Source: Candidatus Poribacteria bacterium (lineage in GTDB: Bacteria > Poribacteria > WGA-4E > WGA-3G). Taken from it: a DNA stretch of 64,000 nucleotides. The position numbers and the translations under genes were made by a program. Within the stretch, counting starts at the first letter, position 1; the number at the start of each line of letters is the position of its first letter. Positions 16,841-24,259 of this stretch are shown here, piece by piece. Location: NCBI GenBank assembly GCA_965215265.1, contig OZ244048.1, positions 64,001 to 128,000 on the forward strand. The letters are read 5' to 3'. Under the pieces are notes generated by a model. That model was given only the letters and a program-made list of their open reading frames with translations. It was not told the origin of the DNA and made no database searches.

Positions 16841-18545
16841 ATGAAAAGAAGAATGCACCCCCCCCCTATGTATGTTAAGTGTTTTGGTTTGCGTGTTGAG
16901 TGTCGGATTTATCTCCTCGGTAATTTCGACATCTGCTCACGCTCAAAATAACGCAGCTATATTACAGAACGTTATACTGAATAATCCCTCGCATACTGGT
17001 ACATCTATGTATGCTACGTTTCGCAAAGCAGCCGAAGATGCAGGTTGGGCTGATTTTAGAGGACGAACGGGCTGGGGTTCACAGGATTTAGCAAGAGCTG
17101 GGAACCATCTAGTGACTGAGGGTCTCGTGGATGCGGAGACAGGTTATTCTACTGATAAGGCTCATGCGAGTCCTATAACGGCTGGCTTCTATAACGCCGG
17201 TGATACGATTCAAATTCAGCTCGTTTTCGATGTTGACGTGTTTGTCAATAAGGATCTTCGTCTCCAATTGCGCTTCGATGGTGCAAGTAGATGGGCCTCT
17301 CTTGACTTGGATTCCCTCACAGGGATAGCAGCTGGCACTTTCAGCGATTCCCATTATACAGCGCAACCTAATAATACGTATTACCAGACCACCAGTGGTG
17401 GTGATAAAACCTTAACCTTTGAGTATGAGGTCAGTTCAGCTGATAACGATAACGCTTTCAGTGGGATAGCTACTGCTATTGATAGGCGGGGTTTCTTTGC
17501 TATAGCCGAGGAAGACCTAACGCAGGGCGCAGGATGGTCGAGACAAGCAGGGCCGAATCAGATAAAATCAGAGCAGGAGGCTGCTATTGTTTCTGTCGCC
17601 CTGCTTAACGATAATCCTGTTCCATGGAACGCCAATAGGTGGAAAGATCATCCGACCACTCCATTCTGGAGTACGGAAGCCAGATACCTAGAAAATATTT
17701 ATCAAGTGTATGCTCTCGGTTATTCAGACGGGGCAAATACCTATTCACACGGGGTAGATACCTTCCGTGCAAGGACGTTCGTGTACAAATTTCCGTCGAC
17801 TGAAACCATTGAAACAGGTGACTTTGAGATAGAGATCAAGTTTTCTAATTGGGGAACTGGTTCCGGAGGGACAGATACCATTGCGGAAACCACGAGAGAC
17901 GATAGCTTCACAGCAGAAGATTTCGTGTTTACGGATTCTGAAGGTATGGAACTCAACGGTTGGACCGTTTCCGAGCCGATGTTTCATGCCCTCGATACGT
18001 TAGACCGAGGTGATCTGCCAGGTGCTTCCATCGCTGATAGGGTGAGAGACGCTGCAGGCTTCAAAGTCTACAGAGCGACTATCACGCCGCCGTTGAATTT
18101 TGACGGAGATGTGAAAATAACGGTGCCTGAGTATGCCACAATGGACATAGCGTTCAACCTGAGCCAGGCCTCGAATGTCCTGACGGTGTCTGTAAATACG
18201 GTTCGGGATGCGGCGCTCCTTGCGGGAATCAGGGAGGAACTCAACATCCCCGCGGGGACGGATGTCACCACGGCAGATCTGCTCCGCTTGACAAGCCTCG
18301 ATCTAAGTGGCTCAGACGTTAGCGATCTGACTTTCCTTCAATCCGCAACCAACTTGGAAGAGTTGGATCTCAGTGATACAGAAGTGTCGGAGATCTCAGC
18401 GCTGTCAACCCTCACCAGCTTGGTAGAGCTGTCTCTCTCGGGTACGCCAGTGTCGGATATCTCGCCGCTGTCAAACCTCACCAACTTGAAAAAGCTGGAT
18501 CTCAGTGATACGCCAGTGTCGAATATCTTGCCTCTGTCACAATAA
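16841..18545 (+). CDS. Secreted Ig-like plus internalin-type LRR protein; probable true start 16841 is out of frame because of a C9 tract (in-frame ORF from 16872)
   Basis: AAGGAG RBS before ATG 16841 (MKRRMH..); hydrophobic signal ending AHA-Q; Ig-like 'YRATITPP..DGDVKITVP....D.A.N'; ~4 LRRs (LEELDLSDTEVSEISALSTLTSL). Confidence 0.75.
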
Positions 18546-18822: not shown

Positions 18823-19815
18823 ATGAGGCAAACTACCGCACCAGAGACATCCAAAGAAACACAAAGCAAACGCAAACTCTGGGACCCTTTCTTCAAAGAG
18901 TTCCTCGCGCTGCTATTCTCTGGGCTGGGTGCCTCTATAGAGACAGAGATAGAAGTCAACCGGTTGCCGCAGCGTATAGATGCACTCGCTCTCCTCGAAA
19001 GTGCCGCAGCCCGCGCGAGAGTGCATGCGAATCCGCTGCTCTCTTACTTACGCACGTATAATCTGTTCGAGTTCAAAGGGCAAAACGACCCGTTGAATGA
19101 ATCGGCGTATTACCGGATTTTTATGCGTGCGTGCGGCTATCTCGCAGCGCATAAGGTTCCAGACACGGAAGTTACTTTGACGATAGTGTCGTCTCGGAAG
19201 CCGCGGGCGCTGCTGACACATCCGCCTTTCGGGTTGCCGTGGGAGCCGCTAGCCCGGGGACATTATAGCCAGGCAGGTCTACCGGTGCATCTATTGGTTT
19301 GTAATGAAGTGGAATTGGTTGAGCCGAATTATTGGTTGCTGCTGTTTGCGTCGTCGCAGAAACAGTTTCGTGCGTTCCTGCGGCGGGTGATAACGGAAGA
19401 GAATACGTTATATTTTGACTCCGCGTTGTATTTGCAGCCGGAAGTCACGGAGGAGGTTTGTGAAATGGAAGGACATCAAGATTTCTTTCAGAGTCGTCTT
19501 CGCGAAGTTGCGACGACTTTGGGTCCGAAGCTGCTGTCGGCGCTGACTACGTCGGATAGATTGGCTCTGTTGAATGCGATGCCCGCGGCAGAACGTGCGG
19601 ATATGTTGGCGAGTCTACCCGCGGCAGAACGTGCGGATATGTTGGCGAGTCTACCCGCGGCAGAACGGGCGGATATGTTGGCACGCCTGAGTCCCGATGA
19701 GCGCGTCAAAGGACTCACTCCCGATGAGCGGTTAGCCGGACTTCATTTATCTCCGGCGGTGCGTGCAGAACTCGTGCGGCAGCTGGAGACAGCTGACAAT
19801 GACACCGACATGTAG
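18823..19815 (+). CDS. Rpn-like PD-(D/E)XK nuclease-family protein with C-terminal 'PxER' repeats
   Basis: WDPFFKE, ETEIEV..LPQRIDAL, NLFEFKG; C-terminal PAAERADMLASL x3 and LSPDERVKGLTPDERLAGL. Confidence 0.7.
   Translation: MRQTTAPETSKETQSKRKLWDPFFKEFLALLFSGLGASIETEIEVNRLPQRIDALALLESAAARARVHANPLLSYLRTYNLFEFKGQNDPLNESAYYRIFMRACGYLAAHKVPDTEVTLTIVSSRKPRALLTHPPFGLPWEPLARGHYSQAGLPVHLLVCNEVELVEPNYWLLLFASSQKQFRAFLRRVITEENTLYFDSALYLQPEVTEEVCEMEGHQDFFQSRLREVATTLGPKLLSALTTSDRLALLNAMPAAERADMLASLPAAERADMLASLPAAERADMLARLSPDERVKGLTPDERLAGLHLSPAVRAELVRQLETADNDTDM
19465..19815 (+). CDS. Putative internal in-frame small protein (116 aa)
   Basis: GGAGGAGGT at 19449-19457, 7 nt before an in-frame ATG at 19465. 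Confidence 0.55.
   Translation: MEGHQDFFQSRLREVATTLGPKLLSALTTSDRLALLNAMPAAERADMLASLPAAERADMLASLPAAERADMLARLSPDERVKGLTPDERLAGLHLSPAVRAELVRQLETADNDTDM
19582..19682 (+). repeat. 36-bp tandem repeat, ~2.8 copies (PAAERADMLASL)
   Basis: Seen directly. Confidence 0.9.
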
Positions 19816-19995: not shown

Positions 19996-21366
19996 TTAGA
20001 AAAACGTCAGGTACGGCTTATCCATTATCTCTCGCCAGAGTAGAACTGCCAGTTCCCGTGCGTGATAATCGCCCCACATTGATGCTTCGCCACACGGAAT
20101 TTTCCGATTTTCAGGCACATAATCCCATCCATTGGGGCGATGATACACCGAGTGCAGCAGTAAGCCTTGGTGTGCATCTGATTGAGAGAGGTACGGTTCA
20201 GAGAACAACGTTTTGGCTACTGTCAGCCCGGCCTGATAGTAGGTGCACCCGGCTTCAGATTCTCTATGCTTTTTGAGATAGTTGCCGAGACGGATTAATC
20301 CTTGTGCGGCGATCGCCGCGGCAGAACTGTCCACTGGTTCAAAGTCGTTAAATGGGTCTGCGGGTGCCGCTAAATAATCTCCTAGTTTGGATAAGCGAGG
20401 TGCCCCGGTATCCCAGTACGGAATTCCATTTTGTGCTGTGTTCTGTATATAAAAATTGGCTGTGGCTTCTGCTGCTTTACGCATATGTGCTGTTGCTTGG
20501 GGATATTCGCCGTAAGGTTGGAGTACCTTTTCTGACAAGGTATCAAAAAATTCAAGCTGCTCTGCGTAGCCGGTGATAATCCAGGCCAATCCACGCGTCC
20601 ACGTGGTAAACGGTGAATAGCCTTGTTGTGTGCTGGGGCATCGGTAGTTTCCATCGTTAGTGTTGAAGATAGATTCGTGTGCAACACGGCCGGGTAAGTC
20701 AAACGCATCGCGTCCGTCGCCGTAGTAGACATTATAGGCTGCTGTGGTTTCGGAATGGTGAAGGAGCCTGGTTAAGAGTGAAATAGGGGTGTCGCCTTCA
20801 CCCATCAGTACTGCCCCCAGCGTATGCCCTACTGCCAAGACACGCAGTGAGCGTATAGTATCTGAAAAGAGCGAATGCGGTCCGTTGAAGGAGTAGATAT
20901 ATCCCTTTCCATCTTTAATTGCTGTCCAGCGGTTTGCTTGGACGGCGGCAGAGGCTTTCAAGGCGAGTTGATAAAAATGCATCTCCGCCTCGTTCCACGG
21001 AATGAGTTTTTCTTGCATCAAGCGGCGGAGATTACCGTACGTGGAGACGTTGTTAAAACCGTGGTCATGTACTCCCACATGTGTGACATGCGGTGCCATC
21101 TTTTGAATTGTATTCTGCCTTCCAATCTCGAGAAACTGTTCGTCACCGGTCGCGTCAAATTGGAGGATGGCAGAGCCGAATTGAAACCCTTGCGTCCATT
21201 CAGTCCAGCCGCGTGTTGTATAGGTTCCTGCAACTGTAAAGACGGGTGTACCTTTGTCAGCGGGCCACGTTTCCTCAATCGCTAAAATCTTTTGACCCGA
21301 AAGTTCGAATAGCCGCTCGATATGAGGCTTGAGTTCATTCACAGTCAATGAATTATTTATTTGCAT
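19996..21366 (-). CDS. Glycoside hydrolase family 88 (unsaturated glucuronyl hydrolase-like)
   Basis: WTEWTQGF..G, HDHGF, QQGYS...TWTRGLAW, IPYWD, DSSAAAIAA, WGDY; likely start ATG 21366. Confidence 0.85.
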   Translation of the reverse strand: MQINNSLTVNELKPHIERLFELSGQKILAIEETWPADKGTPVFTVAGTYTTRGWTEWTQGFQFGSAILQFDATGDEQFLEIGRQNTIQKMAPHVTHVGVHDHGFNNVSTYGNLRRLMQEKLIPWNEAEMHFYQLALKASAAVQANRWTAIKDGKGYIYSFNGPHSLFSDTIRSLRVLAVGHTLGAVLMGEGDTPISLLTRLLHHSETTAAYNVYYGDGRDAFDLPGRVAHESIFNTNDGNYRCPSTQQGYSPFTTWTRGLAWIITGYAEQLEFFDTLSEKVLQPYGEYPQATAHMRKAAEATANFYIQNTAQNGIPYWDTGAPRLSKLGDYLAAPADPFNDFEPVDSSAAAIAAQGLIRLGNYLKKHRESEAGCTYYQAGLTVAKTLFSEPYLSQSDAHQGLLLHSVYHRPNGWDYVPENRKIPCGEASMWGDYHARELAVLLWREIMDKPYLTFF

Positions 21367-21445
21367 TTTTTCTCTGTGGGTGCGATTTCCCAATCGCGAT
21401 AGAGTGGAGTTCTGGAAGCGATTGCTCAATCGCGATAGTATGCTC

Positions 21446-21940
21446 TTAGTTTCCGTCGAAACGATATCGTTCGCATATCACTTCAATTAAGTTAGTTGTG
21501 GATTTGCCAGGGACATTGAGTCCGACGACAACCTTACCGCCATTTGCCTCAACGGTTTCCTTTTCTACGAGTTGCTCTAATTTGTAATCGCCGCCTTTGA
21601 CGTGGATGTTTGGCTTAATCTCGGAGAGCAGTGCAATCGGTGTTAACTCCGGGAAGACGACGACATAATCGACGCATTCCAAGCCGGCGAGCATCTCTGC
21701 ACGTTCTGCCTCCGGCACAAGCGGGCGGGTTTCGCCTTTAAGTTGACGGACCGAACTATCACTGTTCACTGCCACCACGAGCATATCGCCAACCTGGCGG
21801 GCCGCTTGCAAGTATCGGAGGTGCCCCAAGTGAAGTACATCAAAACAACCGTTGGTTGTGACGACTACGTTGCCATCTGCTTTCGCTCGTGCGAGGAGTT
21901 CGGTCAGTTCGTTGCGTTCGTAAATTTTTTTGCGTAACAT
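21446..21940 (-). CDS. rfaE2: D-glycero-beta-D-manno-heptose 1-phosphate adenylyltransferase (RfaE domain II)
   Basis: TNGCFDVLHLGH, NSDSSVRQLKG..RP, VKGGDY, STT. Confidence 0.9.
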   Translation of the reverse strand: MLRKKIYERNELTELLARAKADGNVVVTTNGCFDVLHLGHLRYLQAARQVGDMLVVAVNSDSSVRQLKGETRPLVPEAERAEMLAGLECVDYVVVFPELTPIALLSEIKPNIHVKGGDYKLEQLVEKETVEANGGKVVVGLNVPGKSTTNLIEVICERYRFDGN

Positions 21941-22316
21941 GATGGTATGATACCAACAATCTGTTCTATGGGAGCAATCTGTGCACTTATCGCTTCCATA
22001 GATAGAAAATGTATTCTGGTATTAGTTTAGCATGCTTTGAATTGTTTAGCAAGTTGAAGCGAAAATTGCTTCATAAGGATAGTGCTGCTCTAATCCTAAA
22101 TCTCCAGAATCACCTGATTGCACAAATCCTGTTTTTCTGCTATAATCAACTTGATTAATTGCTAGAAAACCTCAAGTGAGATTGAAAATCCAACACACAC
22201 CAAGCTAAACGGGTTGGCGCATGGAATTGCATCTACGGGAAAATGTTCCCTAAGTCGTTCGGACAAACCCCCTTCACAATCGCTTGCCCGAATTGGAGAA
22301 AATCAAGGAGAAATCA

Positions 22317-23495
22317 ATGAAGAAAAATAGGGCATCTTCGCATCGTGTGCTACCTATTTGCAACCTTGGTGCCCCGGGACACGGTAAAACAACGTTGACT
22401 GCGGCAATTGCGAAAGTGGTTGCACGAATTGGGGCGATTCAGACAGAAATAGATGGCAGCTTTGCGACGCAGCCCCCGGTGCACCAGCCGATTCGTGAAG
22501 GCGTTGGCATAACTTACCGCGCCATCGACTATGAAACGAGTGGTAAATTTTATAAGCAGATTGATTGTGAAAAGCCCCTGGATGTTGTAAAAATGTTAAT
22601 TAGTGGTTCTCCAAGGATCCAGGGTGCGATTTGGGTGGTAAACGCCGTTGATGGAGTCACCCCGGATTCCGCGGCGCATCTTCGCCTTGCAAGTGACATC
22701 CGTCTACCTACAGTGATCCCGTTTCTCAATACTGGTGGCATTCCTCAAGAGGATGAGCTGTTAAACATATGCGAATTGGAGATGTGCGAGCTGCTCAATG
22801 AGTCGGGATGGATAGAATATGCAGCGGGAGCTGAGCAGACAGCAGCCGTGATTATCGGTGATGCACAGAGCGCGTTAACCTATAAAGGTGAGAAGCTTAA
22901 TTCTGTCCAATGGAAACCGATTGTTGACCTGGTCTTTGCGCTGAATCGGTGGATGCCTGAACCTGTGAACGTTACGCAATTGCCCCTGATAATGCCGATT
23001 TATGGGATTATAGAAGAGACGCGCGATAGCGTAACGGTGCACGGTGAAATTGTTCAGGGGCATCTTGCTGTCGGACAAGCGGTTGATATTGTCGGAAAAG
23101 GCGATCGAATCAAGACACGGTGCCTCGGCATAACAGACAACGAAGTCCACGTTGAGGCTGAACCGGGTTGGCTGTCTGTCGGGCAGGTGCTTTGCACGCC
23201 TAAGACTGTCAAATCGCATGCTGCTTTCTCTGCGATTATCTATCTGCTGACCCAAGAAGAGAGCGGCACCCATATTCCATTAATCGATAAGGACAGGCCG
23301 GATATTCATTTGTGGGGTGTTGATATGCCAACCCATCTACAGCTGCCAGCGGACCTCTCAATTATGACACCGGGAACTTATGCAAGCGTCACCATGAGAC
23401 TTGATTTACCTTTAGTGATCGAAGTCGGGACGCGGTTTGAGGTAAAAAAGATGGGGGCTAGAGTCGGTATCGGTATTGTGACGGGGTTGGATTGA
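22317..23495 (+). CDS. Highly divergent EF-Tu paralogue (probable pseudo-GTPase)
   Basis: GAPGHGKTTLTAAI, YET..KFYKQIDC, GAIWVVNAVDG, GQVL, YLLTQEESG.H.P, MTPG, GTRF..VGIGIV align colinearly with EF-Tu domains 1-3; AAGGAG RBS before ATG 22317. Confidence 0.85.
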   Translation: MKKNRASSHRVLPICNLGAPGHGKTTLTAAIAKVVARIGAIQTEIDGSFATQPPVHQPIREGVGITYRAIDYETSGKFYKQIDCEKPLDVVKMLISGSPRIQGAIWVVNAVDGVTPDSAAHLRLASDIRLPTVIPFLNTGGIPQEDELLNICELEMCELLNESGWIEYAAGAEQTAAVIIGDAQSALTYKGEKLNSVQWKPIVDLVFALNRWMPEPVNVTQLPLIMPIYGIIEETRDSVTVHGEIVQGHLAVGQAVDIVGKGDRIKTRCLGITDNEVHVEAEPGWLSVGQVLCTPKTVKSHAAFSAIIYLLTQEESGTHIPLIDKDRPDIHLWGVDMPTHLQLPADLSIMTPGTYASVTMRLDLPLVIEVGTRFEVKKMGARVGIGIVTGLD

Positions 23496-23551
23496 TTTGC
23501 TGCATTTATCTATCAGACTATGCAGACATCTGAAGTAGATGCTAACGGATG

Positions 23552-24259
23552 CTATTTGGCGGTAGCTATAGCATCCTCAAGGAAGAGCGCACCTGTGTAT
23601 AGCGCGCGTCCTATAATTGCTCCACTGGTCCTGATACTCTTGAGTGCGGCTATGTCCTCGATAGTCGTGATACCCCCGGAAGCAATGACATCGGCTGGGA
23701 TAGTGTTAACGATGTCCGCTGTTGCCTCTACATTCGGCCCCTTCAGCATCCCGTCACTCTTAATGTCTGTATAGATAACCGTCTGAACATCTTCCATCTG
23801 TTTTGCGAATTCGACAGCGGATTTTTGAGAGACTTCCAACCAACCGTGTGTTGCAACCATGCCGTCTTTCGCATCAATGCCGACGGCGATGCTTTGGCCG
23901 TAAAGGTCGCAAGCCTGTTTTACCAATTCTGGTTGCTTGAGTGCCGCTGTCCCTAAAATTGTTCGGTGAACGCCGAGTCCTAAAACGGCTTCTACCTGTT
24001 CTAAAGTTCGAATGCCGCCCCCAAGTTGTACGGGTATGTCTAGTACAGAGACAATCTCTCTGACAATATCAAGATTAGCCGATACGCCTCGAAACGCGCC
24101 GTCGAGGTCAACAAGATGGAGATATTCTGCGCCTTCCGACTGCCACTTTTCTGCCATTTCCACAGGTGCGTCTGAGAAGATTGTCTCGTGTTCTGCTATG
24201 CCTTGCACCAAGTTAACACACTTTCCGTCTCGTAGATCGATGGCTGGTAAAATTAACAT
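23552..24259 (-). CDS. hisA: ProFAR isomerase HisA
   Basis: ILPAIDLRDGKCV, LHLVDLDGA, QLGGGIR, YTDIKSDGML.GPN, IASGG. Confidence 0.95.
   Translation of the reverse strand: MLILPAIDLRDGKCVNLVQGIAEHETIFSDAPVEMAEKWQSEGAEYLHLVDLDGAFRGVSANLDIVREIVSVLDIPVQLGGGIRTLEQVEAVLGLGVHRTILGTAALKQPELVKQACDLYGQSIAVGIDAKDGMVATHGWLEVSQKSAVEFAKQMEDVQTVIYTDIKSDGMLKGPNVEATADIVNTIPADVIASGGITTIEDIAALKSIRTSGAIIGRALYTGALFLEDAIATAK

Follow-up and report, generated by a model that had tools for sequence, protein, structure and literature searches.

A Poribacteria-restricted EF-Tu paralogue under purifying selection, with a degenerate GTPase centre and a missing aminoacyl-pocket segment

We examined a stretch of 64,000 nucleotides from a poribacterial genome (the window) and characterized a paralogue of elongation factor Tu (EF-Tu) that is very probably a selected, non-canonical derivative of EF-Tu acting independently of hydrolysis. 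The three-domain fold is kept, but the role of GTP-driven aminoacyl-tRNA carrier is gone; in our alignments, every copy examined lacks both the glycine of the DxxG motif and the domain-2 segment of the aminoacyl/A76 pocket. Selection has persisted despite the loss of the GTP switch and the aminoacyl-tRNA pocket, so the protein must do a new job. The whole reading that we favour, a nucleotide-independent, EF-Tu-derived adaptor working on the translation apparatus, has about equal chances of proving right or wrong. Few proteins are as conserved or as well studied as EF-Tu, and a class-restricted paralogue under strong selection that lacks both GTP switch and tRNA pocket would amount to a new functional branch of EF-Tu.

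The gene and its genomic setting

The pseudo-EF-Tu coding sequence occupies positions 22317-23495 of the plus strand, with an ATG at 22317, a stop at 23493-23495 and an unbroken frame of 392 aa. The initial annotation had described an uninterrupted ORF of about this length, colinear with EF-Tu and equipped with its own ribosome-binding site, and our analysis bears this out. The ribosome-binding site AAGGAG (22305-22310, plus strand) stands six bases 5' of the ATG, with AGGAG conserved among orthologues, and residues 12-389 align to positions 13-390 of the 394 in TIGR00485, the EF-Tu equivalog model. The score against this model was 196.1 bits, below its cut-off of 522.4. Pfam matched GTP_EFTU and GTP_EFTU_D3 in the paralogue and returned no match to GTP_EFTU_D2 (PF03144), which was also missing from the precomputed domains. 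The AlphaFold2 model reached a pLDDT of 90.3 and a pTM of 0.87, and its best PDB matches in Foldseek were EF-Tu chains (TM 0.82-0.87), several of them titled as GDP complexes. The profile span and the AlphaFold2/Foldseek results thus both place three colinear EF-Tu domains in the protein. Compared with canonical EF-Tu (TIGR00485; GTP_EFTU, _D2, _D3), it shares the three-domain fold, the Walker-A motif of this copy, helix D and core residues, and it is clearly derived from EF-Tu.

A canonical tuf, which the initial annotation had proposed to look for, adjoins fusA in the same genome (G000:C1:3093530-3094726), scores 724.9 bits against TIGR00485 and is 33% identical to the paralogue in alignment. 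The paralogue itself, as had been stated, lies outside any str or tRNA-tuf context; it is monocistronic, flanked by a cytidylyltransferase-like gene and by hisA on the opposite strand. Nor is it SelB. Its score against TIGR00475 was 20.9 bits versus a cut-off of 242, and at 392 aa it has no C-terminal extension, whereas SelB carries C-terminal SECIS-binding domains. The genome has its own SelB-like frame of 656 aa, separate from the paralogue and adjoining tRNA-Sec (G000:C1:2079553-2081614). According to the available portion of PMC4329189, SelB and SelB/EF-Tu/aIF2γ-like proteins such as MM1309 are likewise specialized EF1-family paralogues, but they bind GTP and a specific aminoacyl-tRNA, for which the present protein has no pocket.

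The paralogue has its own conserved promoter. A sigma-70-type element with an extended -10 (TTGCA-N15-TGCTATAAT; 22118-22146, plus strand), scoring 10/12 with a TG, is the sole match to its pattern in the 64-kb window, where shuffles expect 0. Of 80 oriented orthologous loci (L091-L170), 28 have the exact pattern 48-90 nt before the start, and the promoter is also apparent in an alignment of orthologue upstream regions. The leader (22147-22304, plus strand) is about 170 nt long; most orthologues have shorter ones of roughly 50-90 nt in the upstream alignment. An Rfam search over 21800-23700 gave a chance-level match alone (CncR1, at 21.9 bits where the gathering score is 76). No RNA runs containing the stretch were listed; four DNA runs of one study contain it.

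Synteny around the paralogue is stable within family f1. Across 20 loci of about 15 kb each, no neighbour gene was common to all four families f1-f4, so genomic context supplies neither an operon clue nor a functional hint. In f3, the downstream genes on the same strand encode an M20 peptidase, an isochorismatase, a metallophosphoesterase, and CYTH and CHAD proteins, a neighbourhood not common to f1, f2 or f4. The GC3 of the paralogue equals the genome median. Its codon adaptation index lies at the 6th percentile, versus the 97th for tuf, which is weak evidence in keeping with a regulator.

Distribution and purifying selection

A survey of 100 other genomes of the phylum with query P0001 returned paralogue-level matches in each of the four families that make up the order, namely in 64/65 genomes of f1, 7/7 of f2, 18/18 of f3 and 2/3 of f4, the third f4 genome being found by profile. 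Seven genomes lay outside the order; five gave a single match at the level of canonical tuf and two gave none. Two further families of the class, f9 and f10, carry a less derived clade, the P0123 type, which in G111 accompanies a canonical tuf; f5-f8 lack the paralogue. The wider search, over 185,579 species genomes, yielded 188 relatives, and the best 80 of the 188 were all titled Poribacteria or uncultured bacterium. In a library clustered at 50% identity, only two representatives exceeded the generic EF-Tu level. The ESM Atlas returned generic divergent EF1-family clusters alone. In a tree of 63 rows, for which 37 library matches of 385-412 aa among P0124-P0271 served as the outgroup and the remaining matches were left out, the 21 paralogues formed one long-stemmed clade outside all EF-Tus (SH-aLRT 100). 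The paralogue is vertically inherited and restricted to Poribacteria.

Bacterial EF-Tu-like subfamilies beyond SelB and the actinomycete Tuf3 type are said to be lacking in the portion of Atkinson 2015 (PMC4342817) available to us. The same portion presents actEF-Tu as the sole clearly distinct EF-Tu-like subfamily, confined to some Actinomycetales, where it is a condition-specific, antibiotic-resistant translation factor (PMC4342817). As far as that text goes, actEF-Tu/Streptomyces Tuf3 resembles our paralogue in being lineage-restricted and distinct from the housekeeping tuf, but it is a translation factor, whereas the poribacterial family has lost features needed for translation. The literature searched contained no paper on the poribacterial paralogue, the subfamily lists of Atkinson 2015 and the datasets of the Balon paper being outside the scope of that search. 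A proteome preprint (10.64898/2026.10.20.760564), in the part available, names EF-Tu only generically.

Strong purifying selection acts on all three domains. Among 78 orthologues, the median dN/dS (omega) was 0.096 with a range of 0.056-0.191, as estimated from the 626 of 3003 orthologue pairs with 0.1<dS<1.2. Values by part were similarly low (G domain 0.102, domain 2 0.085, domain 3 0.086), and omega over residues 14-70, the P-loop/switch-I segment, was 0.082. Copies without a P-loop gave 0.13-0.18. The frame was intact and free of internal stops in every genome examined. The many degenerate catalytic motifs could have marked a duplicate that is degenerating into a pseudogene, the outcome against which the initial annotation had suggested an orthologue search and dN/dS estimates. 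With orthologues throughout the order, intact frames, an omega of 0.096, a conserved promoter and ribosome-binding site and high AlphaFold2 confidence, that explanation is refuted and its likelihood is negligible.

The pattern of inheritance also bears on an idea raised at the outset, namely that the protein is a decoy or sensor for EF-Tu-targeting toxins, phage proteins or antibiotics. An EF-Tu look-alike that is useless for translation would suit such a purpose, and EF-Tu bound by the toxins Tse6 and CdiA appears among the Foldseek matches, although this shows no more than that such toxins exist. Against a decoy stand its vertical and near-universal presence in the order, where a defence gene would be expected to occur patchily, a GC3 no different from the genome median, housekeeping neighbours with no defence island, and zero PADLOC-DB families matched at E<=1. 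Furthermore, the family as a whole does not conserve the residues that Doc and Lit target in EF-Tu, namely the Thr of REGGRT for Doc and the Gly-Ile of switch I for Lit. We regard a decoy or sensor as very unlikely and have set that part of the initial annotation aside.

The GTPase centre and the aminoacyl pocket

The initial annotation held that the GTPase and tRNA-binding residues had been systematically lost. Alignment with the host's canonical EF-Tu reproduced every motif substitution it listed, and many motifs are indeed gone, but 'systematically' overstates the case, since GxxxxGKT and the Mg-site Asp are still present in this copy. Of the 74 positions with a conservation of 95% or more across 12 canonical EF-Tus, the paralogue keeps 21 and has changed 44. 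The Walker-A loop is retained as GAPGHGKT (aa 18-25; 22368-22391, plus strand) where canonical EF-Tu has GHVDHGKT; it conforms to GxxxxGK[ST], and GxxxHGKTT is found in 78/78 close orthologues. Switch I is remodelled relative to canonical EF-Tu, with its Gly-Ile-Thr retained in this copy.

Further along the G domain, the canonical DCPGHAD of switch II has become DCEKPLD (aa 83-89; 22563-22583, plus strand), in which the Asp of DxxG is kept and the Gly and the catalytic His are gone, such that DxxGH no longer describes it. The Gly is missing in 21/21 paralogues. The DCEKPLD variant occurs in 1/78 close orthologues and most retain DCETH, and as judged from these alignments only this gene and a few relatives have lost the catalytic His. 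The G4 motif reads NTGG (aa 138-141; 22728-22739, plus strand) in place of NKAD in the host tuf, and its last two positions vary among the 78 orthologues (GG, RN, DG, HN and others). G5 has changed from GSAL to GDAQ, leaving this copy with neither the NKxD nor the SAL of guanine recognition.

Comparison across lineages shows that the GTPase centre has eroded stepwise and to different degrees, ending in deletion of the P-loop. NKxD is intact in basal lineages, and the basal P0123 clade retains G1, NKxD and GSA. From there G4 can be followed from NKAD (L044) through NKAE and NQTE to NT with two variable residues, and in four genomes, of genera g12 and g19, the P-loop is deleted and the gene is still intact. 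The relatives would span a series from the P0123 type, probably binding GTP without a switch, to the form with no P-loop, and this natural series makes the path from GTPase to pseudo-GTPase directly testable. Because the gene is under selection even where the P-loop has been deleted (g12, g19), the function shared by the family would need no hydrolysis and probably no nucleotide binding. The paralogue thereby has the attributes of a pseudo-GTPase, a kept fold with lost motifs under purifying selection, the loss of nucleotide binding being a prediction. The earlier proposal of a repurposed pseudo-GTPase is supported by lineage-wide orthologues, the dN/dS of 0.096, the conserved promoter and the retention of the gene in P-loop-less sister lineages.

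The P-loop is nonetheless invariant in this copy and the 78 orthologues, with an omega of 0.082 across its segment, so binding of a nucleotide or of phosphate may still be important in this copy. An alternative is that the f1-f3 copies, including this one, are nucleotide-binding switches with altered base specificity (ATP or any NTP) and that only the g12/g19 forms are nucleotide-free. Retention of GxxxxGKT, of an invariant DxxG Asp and of the switch-I Thr would fit such a switch, as would the low omega of residues 14-70, the G1, NKxD and GSA of the basal P0123 clade, and the intermediate lineages with NKxE or NQxE, NxxE being the G4 form of the ATP-preferring YchF/OLA1. However, within f1 the final pair of G4 residues is free to vary, no paralogue has the DxxG Gly that senses the γ-phosphate, the catalytic His is dispensable, and the four P-loop-less genomes still keep the gene at an omega of 0.13-0.18. 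We consider an altered switch unlikely.

Besides the DxxG Gly, NKxD and the SAL Ser, canonical EF-Tu has an aminoacyl hairpin that the paralogue lacks, and the tRNA surface of its domain III is remodelled. At the site of the hairpin (~aa 271-285; 23127-23171, plus strand), which is followed by a conserved AEPGW motif, a gap of 14 residues takes the place of the host EF-Tu's MFRK..GDNIG segment, and the gap is present in 21/21 paralogues. PIEDIF of the host tuf has become PIYGII and REGGHT has become KKMGAR, the invariant Glu of REGG being swapped for an invariant Lys (E384 to K378, 100%). EF-Tu domain III contacts the tRNA T-stem, and its good conservation here, together with a Lys that would favour phosphate contacts, might suggest a specialized carrier of an unusual tRNA or other RNA, comparable to SelB or to nematode mitochondrial EF-Tu variants. 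The deletion of the A76-pocket hairpin in all 21 paralogues and the loss of PIED argue against this. So does the tRNA set, which is ordinary; aragorn predicted 49 genes in the genome, namely 47 standard tRNAs, tRNA-Sec and tmRNA, and tRNA-Sec already has its adjoining SelB. In addition, a protein without the DxxG Gly is unlikely to reach a closed form that depends on GTP, and the copies with no P-loop could not do so at all. An RNA carrier is accordingly improbable.

Conserved surfaces and candidate partners

Two conserved surfaces would be available to a nucleotide-independent adaptor, namely helix D of the G domain and a remodelled patch of domain III. Helix D (aa 143-162; 22743-22802, plus strand) resembles that of EF-Tu, and its acidic residues are shared by every paralogue; E147, E155, E158 and L160 vary little or not at all across alignments A1, A2 and A4, P-loop-less copies and canonical EF-Tu included. 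The domain-III patch comprises H319, P321, D326 and W333 (23271-23315, plus strand), which are family-specific and invariant in alignments A2 (29 sequences) and A5 (25 sequences, including basal and P-loop-less forms). D326 and W333 stand where EF-Tu has Y and R, and this region would correspond to the part of EF-Tu that binds the tRNA T-stem or Balon. New invariant residues of the family are C15, W199, W285, W333 and H319. In EF-Tu, both EF-Ts and the bL12 stalk dock on helix D. Given the conservation of helix D and of the domain-III patch, the likeliest targets are EF-Ts and the ribosomal factor-binding site, and one or the other is a possible, if less than probable, partner. Such surfaces also offer a probe of the functions that helix D and domain III of EF-Tu may have independently of tRNA delivery.

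The new invariant residues C15, W199, W285, W333 and H319 could instead mark novel surfaces of an EF-Tu fold put to non-translational use, for example as a cytoskeleton- or MreB-associated, a chaperone-like or a metabolic scaffold unconnected with EF-Ts and the ribosome. There is precedent for such a shift, as the moonlighting of EF-Tu is well documented in the portions of PMC6822514 and PMC5593925 available, and the f3 run of same-strand genes from the M20 peptidase to CHAD would agree with such a role. But that neighbourhood is absent from f1, f2 and f4, the acidic face of helix D remains EF-Tu-like in all lineages, and the low codon adaptation speaks against an abundant structural role. A non-translational role appears rather unlikely.

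Returning to a partner in the translation apparatus, a regulator of EF-Ts or the ribosome, or a scaffold, was among the roles initially proposed and remains the best guess; the conserved helix D agrees with it and co-folding adds weak support for EF-Ts. The paralogue and EF-Ts co-folded with a score of 0.45, versus 0.03 for the best of three controls, in a range (passes scoring <=0.60) that held only 7 of 80 solved complexes plus both of the passing mismatched pairs. In total, 58 of the 80 solved complexes passed the mark, as did 2 of 110 mismatched pairs. Runs agreed in at least 50% of contacts, with a partner pLDDT of at least 79. Since EF-Tu:EF-Ts is a solved textbook pair, the pass may reflect memory. 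The suggested AlphaFold modelling with EF-Ts has given a confident model of the paralogue and weak support for the complex.

The protein would sit permanently in an open shape, like EF-Tu·GDP or nucleotide-free EF-Tu, and would act as a low-abundance adaptor or regulator. The available portion of PMC10901736 describes how open EF-Tu(GDP) sits on ribosomes through domain II (at h5), domain III (at Balon and the sarcin-ricin loop) and bL12. On the same source, EF-Tu(GDP) on Balon-bound hibernating ribosomes is in an open form without hydrolysis, and so offers a model for an open-locked mimic (PMC10901736); PDB 8rdw and 8v9l, which show this arrangement, were among the Foldseek matches of the paralogue. 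The factor described there, however, is canonical EF-Tu and needs Balon (PMC10901736), whereas a search of G000, which is 95% complete, for a Balon-like partner found neither PF10116 nor PF03465.

The concept of a pseudo-GTPase adaptor has a eukaryotic parallel in Ski7. This EF1A-family pseudo-GTPase belongs to the Hbs1/eRF3 lineage and has the exosome and the Ski complex as its partners. As in the paralogue, the fold is that of a translational GTPase whose G motifs have degenerated, in the manner of a binding module instead of a switch. The literature searched held no bacterial, EF-Tu-derived counterpart of Ski7. We put forward, as a doubtful extension, that the paralogue is the first bacterial EF-Tu-derived pseudo-GTPase, an open-locked, nucleotide-independent mimic that uses helix D and the new surface of domain III to dock on EF-Ts or the ribosomal factor site and tunes or parks translation. 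Parking would resemble hibernation or a control of growth rate in slow-growing symbionts. Sponge-associated Poribacteria are unculturable and their physiology is known almost only from genomes; the paralogue is possibly a new translation regulator in these bacteria.

With respect to the open shape, the AlphaFold2 models adopt a form like that of EF-Tu·GDP, which may simply be what the program produces for any EF-Tu. The model of a P-loop-less relative (pLDDT 86.6) gave TM values of 0.75-0.83 to GDP forms, versus 0.48 to the GppNHp form 1exm.

An EF-Tu-like gene under purifying selection

The pseudo-EF-Tu ORF (22317-23495, + strand) spans 392 codons without interruption, with a ribosome-binding site, read from the sequence as AAGGAG, six bases 5' of its ATG. 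NCBIfam EF-Tu models aligned to the protein over their full length with scores far under their cut-offs (TIGR00485, 196.1 bits vs a cut-off of 522.4), and a Pfam search matched GTP_EFTU and GTP_EFTU_D3 and found no domain-2 model. Alignment to the canonical EF-Tu (tuf) of the same genome gave 33 % identity and displayed every motif change listed in the initial annotation; of 74 reference positions at least 95 % conserved across 12 canonical EF-Tus, 21 were kept and 44 changed. The proposed loss of nucleotide-site residues held for those listed changes, but GxxxxGKT, the DxxG Asp and the switch-I Gly-Ile-Thr are retained in the window's copy, for which residual nucleotide switching is a rival explanation. 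Similarly, loss of the catalytic His applies to the window's gene and a few relatives: most close orthologues read DCETH, and the DCEKPLD variant was present in just 1 of 78. The source genome, a single 4.83-Mb contig that is 95 % complete, bears out the expectation of a canonical tuf elsewhere, carrying one (724.9 bits) directly downstream of fusA. A separate SelB-like gene adjoins tRNA-Sec, in keeping with the earlier view that the paralogue is not SelB.

Comparison of 78 orthologues yielded a median dN/dS (omega) of 0.096 (0.056-0.191) among the 626 of 3003 pairs with 0.1<dS<1.2, which is not near 1; values for the G domain, domain 2 and domain 3 were 0.102, 0.085 and 0.086, and a smaller first run had given 0.06-0.13. 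A decaying duplicate is excluded by this omega and the intact frame. Pseudo-EF-Tu is a selected EF-Tu derivative, predicted to be incapable of carrying aminoacyl-tRNA in the known mode. An extended -10 promoter, TTGCA-N15-TGCTATAAT, lies at 22118-22146 (+) and is the sole such site in the 64-kb window; it was found in the same place in 28/80 oriented orthologous loci, amid intergenic DNA that is otherwise unalignable. The leader (22147-22304) places the promoter ~170 nt from the start vs ~50-90 nt in most orthologues, and its ~110-nt insertion matched no recognised RNA family. Codon adaptation was low for pseudo-EF-Tu (CAI 0.680, 6th percentile) vs tuf (0.773, 97th percentile), whilst its GC3 equalled the genome median.

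Distribution and stepwise motif change

A word-index search returned 359 relatives; among the 120 listed, identity was 67-99 % and those named were Candidatus Poribacteria, annotated as 'GTP-binding protein', 'hypothetical protein' or 'elongation factor Tu'. In an exhaustive search across 1.84 billion representatives, just two, at 421 and 244 bits, exceeded the generic EF-Tu level of <=174 bits. Scanning 185,579 species genomes brought up 188 relatives; the 80 that scored best all bore the title Poribacteria or 'uncultured bacterium', the single-cell genome WGA-3G among them. We also surveyed 100 other genomes of the phylum. Within the source order, paralogue-level matches were present in 64/65 genomes of family f1 (the missing one is 86 % complete), 7/7 of f2, 18/18 of f3 and 2/3 of f4, where a profile search recovered the third. 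Outside the order, five of seven genomes held a single canonical-level match and two had no match; direct searching of five genomes from outside the order with canonical tuf found no second ~400-aa gene. From the 244-bit representative, P0123, we reached a sister clade of the paralogue that is less derived and small, with 14 proteins (P0123 and P0272-P0284; loci L184 on G111:C64 and L185 on G112:C5), three of them named Poribacteria, found in two further families of the same class (f9 and f10). Genome G111 carries this gene alongside a canonical tuf (714 bits), and in G112 (79 % complete) the paralogue was found and canonical tuf was not. In the tree, 21 paralogues grouped together with full support (SH-aLRT 100) in a single long-stemmed clade, with the internal order f4, f1, then f2 with f3, a topology consistent with vertical descent.

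Motifs differed in steps across these lineages. The DxxG glycine was absent from all paralogues examined, and a 14-residue domain-2 hairpin from 21/21 order-level copies. The basal P0123-type clade retains G1 (Walker-A), NKxD, GSA and M.xEDVF, with DCVNH at G3 (DCPGH in EF-Tu), a switch I without Thr and an acidic low-complexity insert in place of the aminoacyl-pocket segment. Copies from f4 genus g10 carry GGxKHGKTA, DxESH and NKAD or NEVD; G4 reads NKAE or NKSE in f3, NQ(T/S)E in f2, where the P-loop is GGAQ(T/A)GKTS, and NT plus two free positions in f1. In four genomes of f4 genera g12 and g19, a three-residue deletion removes the entire GKT of the P-loop (L177, G080:C6; L176, G103:C8; L178, G102:C90; L171, G101:C41); these copies have also lost DxxG and NKxD, yet each keeps an intact reading frame, at an omega of 0.13-0.18. 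We infer that the function common to the family is independent of GTP hydrolysis and, because P-loop-less lineages exist, probably of any nucleotide. Atkinson (2015) singles out actEF-Tu as the one EF-Tu-like subfamily that is clearly distinct, and our literature search, which did not extend to supplementary files, found no publication on the poribacterial family. We regard it as a bacterial EF-Tu-derived pseudo-GTPase subfamily in which a series of intermediate forms is preserved. Exactly where domain 2 has its deletion, the f3 copies (L039-L042, L046-L048) additionally carry a low-complexity insert, acidic or rich in Ser, whose length varies (~8-25 residues).

Retained surfaces and predicted structure

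Helix D of EF-Tu is the docking site for EF-Ts and bL12. It is retained here, the family consensus D.ELIEIC.mEirEll being near own tuf's DEELIELVELEVRELL, and its acidic residues are invariant, P-loop-less copies included. A family-specific domain-III patch is also retained (H319, P321, D326, W333, with KK in place of RE), in a region that forms the T-stem surface in EF-Tu. An RNA carrier is a rival reading. According to PMC10901736, Balon binds the same domain-III residues of EF-Tu, and contacts with h5, the sarcin-ricin loop, bL12 and Balon keep open EF-Tu(GDP) on ribosomes.

For the window's protein, the AlphaFold2 model (pLDDT 90.3, pTM 0.87) was closest to EF-Tu chains, several from entries titled GDP complexes. 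One model of a P-loop-less copy kept the EF-Tu fold (pLDDT 86.6), with TM 0.75-0.83 to GDP-form EF-Tus vs 0.48 to the GppNHp form 1exm. Co-folding the window's protein with the genome's own EF-Ts (alignments A2 and A3) scored 0.45 vs 0.03 for the best of three controls, past a mark reached by 58/80 solved complexes and 2/110 mismatches; passing scores of <=0.60 comprised 7/80 solved complexes and both passing mismatches. Runs agreed in at least 50 % of contacts, with partner pLDDT at least 79. Because the EF-Tu:EF-Ts complex is already solved, this weak support indicates likeness, not binding. The EF-Ts (G000:C1:1679728-1680318; L049/L061) is a short form of 197 aa and, across the order, is more conserved (62-92 % identity) than pseudo-EF-Tu (44-79 %).

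The most likely role of pseudo-EF-Tu is that of a low-abundance adaptor whose shape would be open, resembling EF-Tu·GDP or a nucleotide-free form, and whose helix D and domain III would bind some part of the translation machinery. An EF-Tu look-alike free of nucleotide should retain EF-Ts, with GTP not releasing it.

Gene neighbourhoods

No neighbour gene common to families f1-f4 was found. In f1, the monocistronic pseudo-EF-Tu gene has a divergent cytidylyltransferase-like gene on one side and a convergent hisA on the other; in f4 it lies upstream of NamZ and DUF3500. In f3 the genes that come after it encode an M20 peptidase, an isochorismatase-like protein, a protein of 457 aa lacking any Pfam match, a metallophosphoesterase, CYTH and CHAD. 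This run (L039, 1088-8239, - strand; likewise L042, L046 and L048) is on the same strand, with a 45-nt gap after the paralogue, and may be a lineage-specific operon. A non-translational scaffold and a decoy are further rivals to the adaptor reading; against the decoy stands a PADLOC search that matched no defence family.

Close to the window's gene, a 477-aa ORF (19996-21429, -) is conserved beside the paralogue in f1 and had no Pfam match at E<=1e-4. A 557-aa protein (16872-18545, +) begins with a signal-like segment and carries leucine-rich repeats (LRR_4) at its C-terminal end; eukaryote-like repeat proteins of this type are often noted among sponge symbionts. Between the two, a 330-aa ORF (18823-19815, +), with a weak MgtE_N match as its sole Pfam match, bears three tandem 11-residue units (LASLPAAERADM-like) near its C-terminus.
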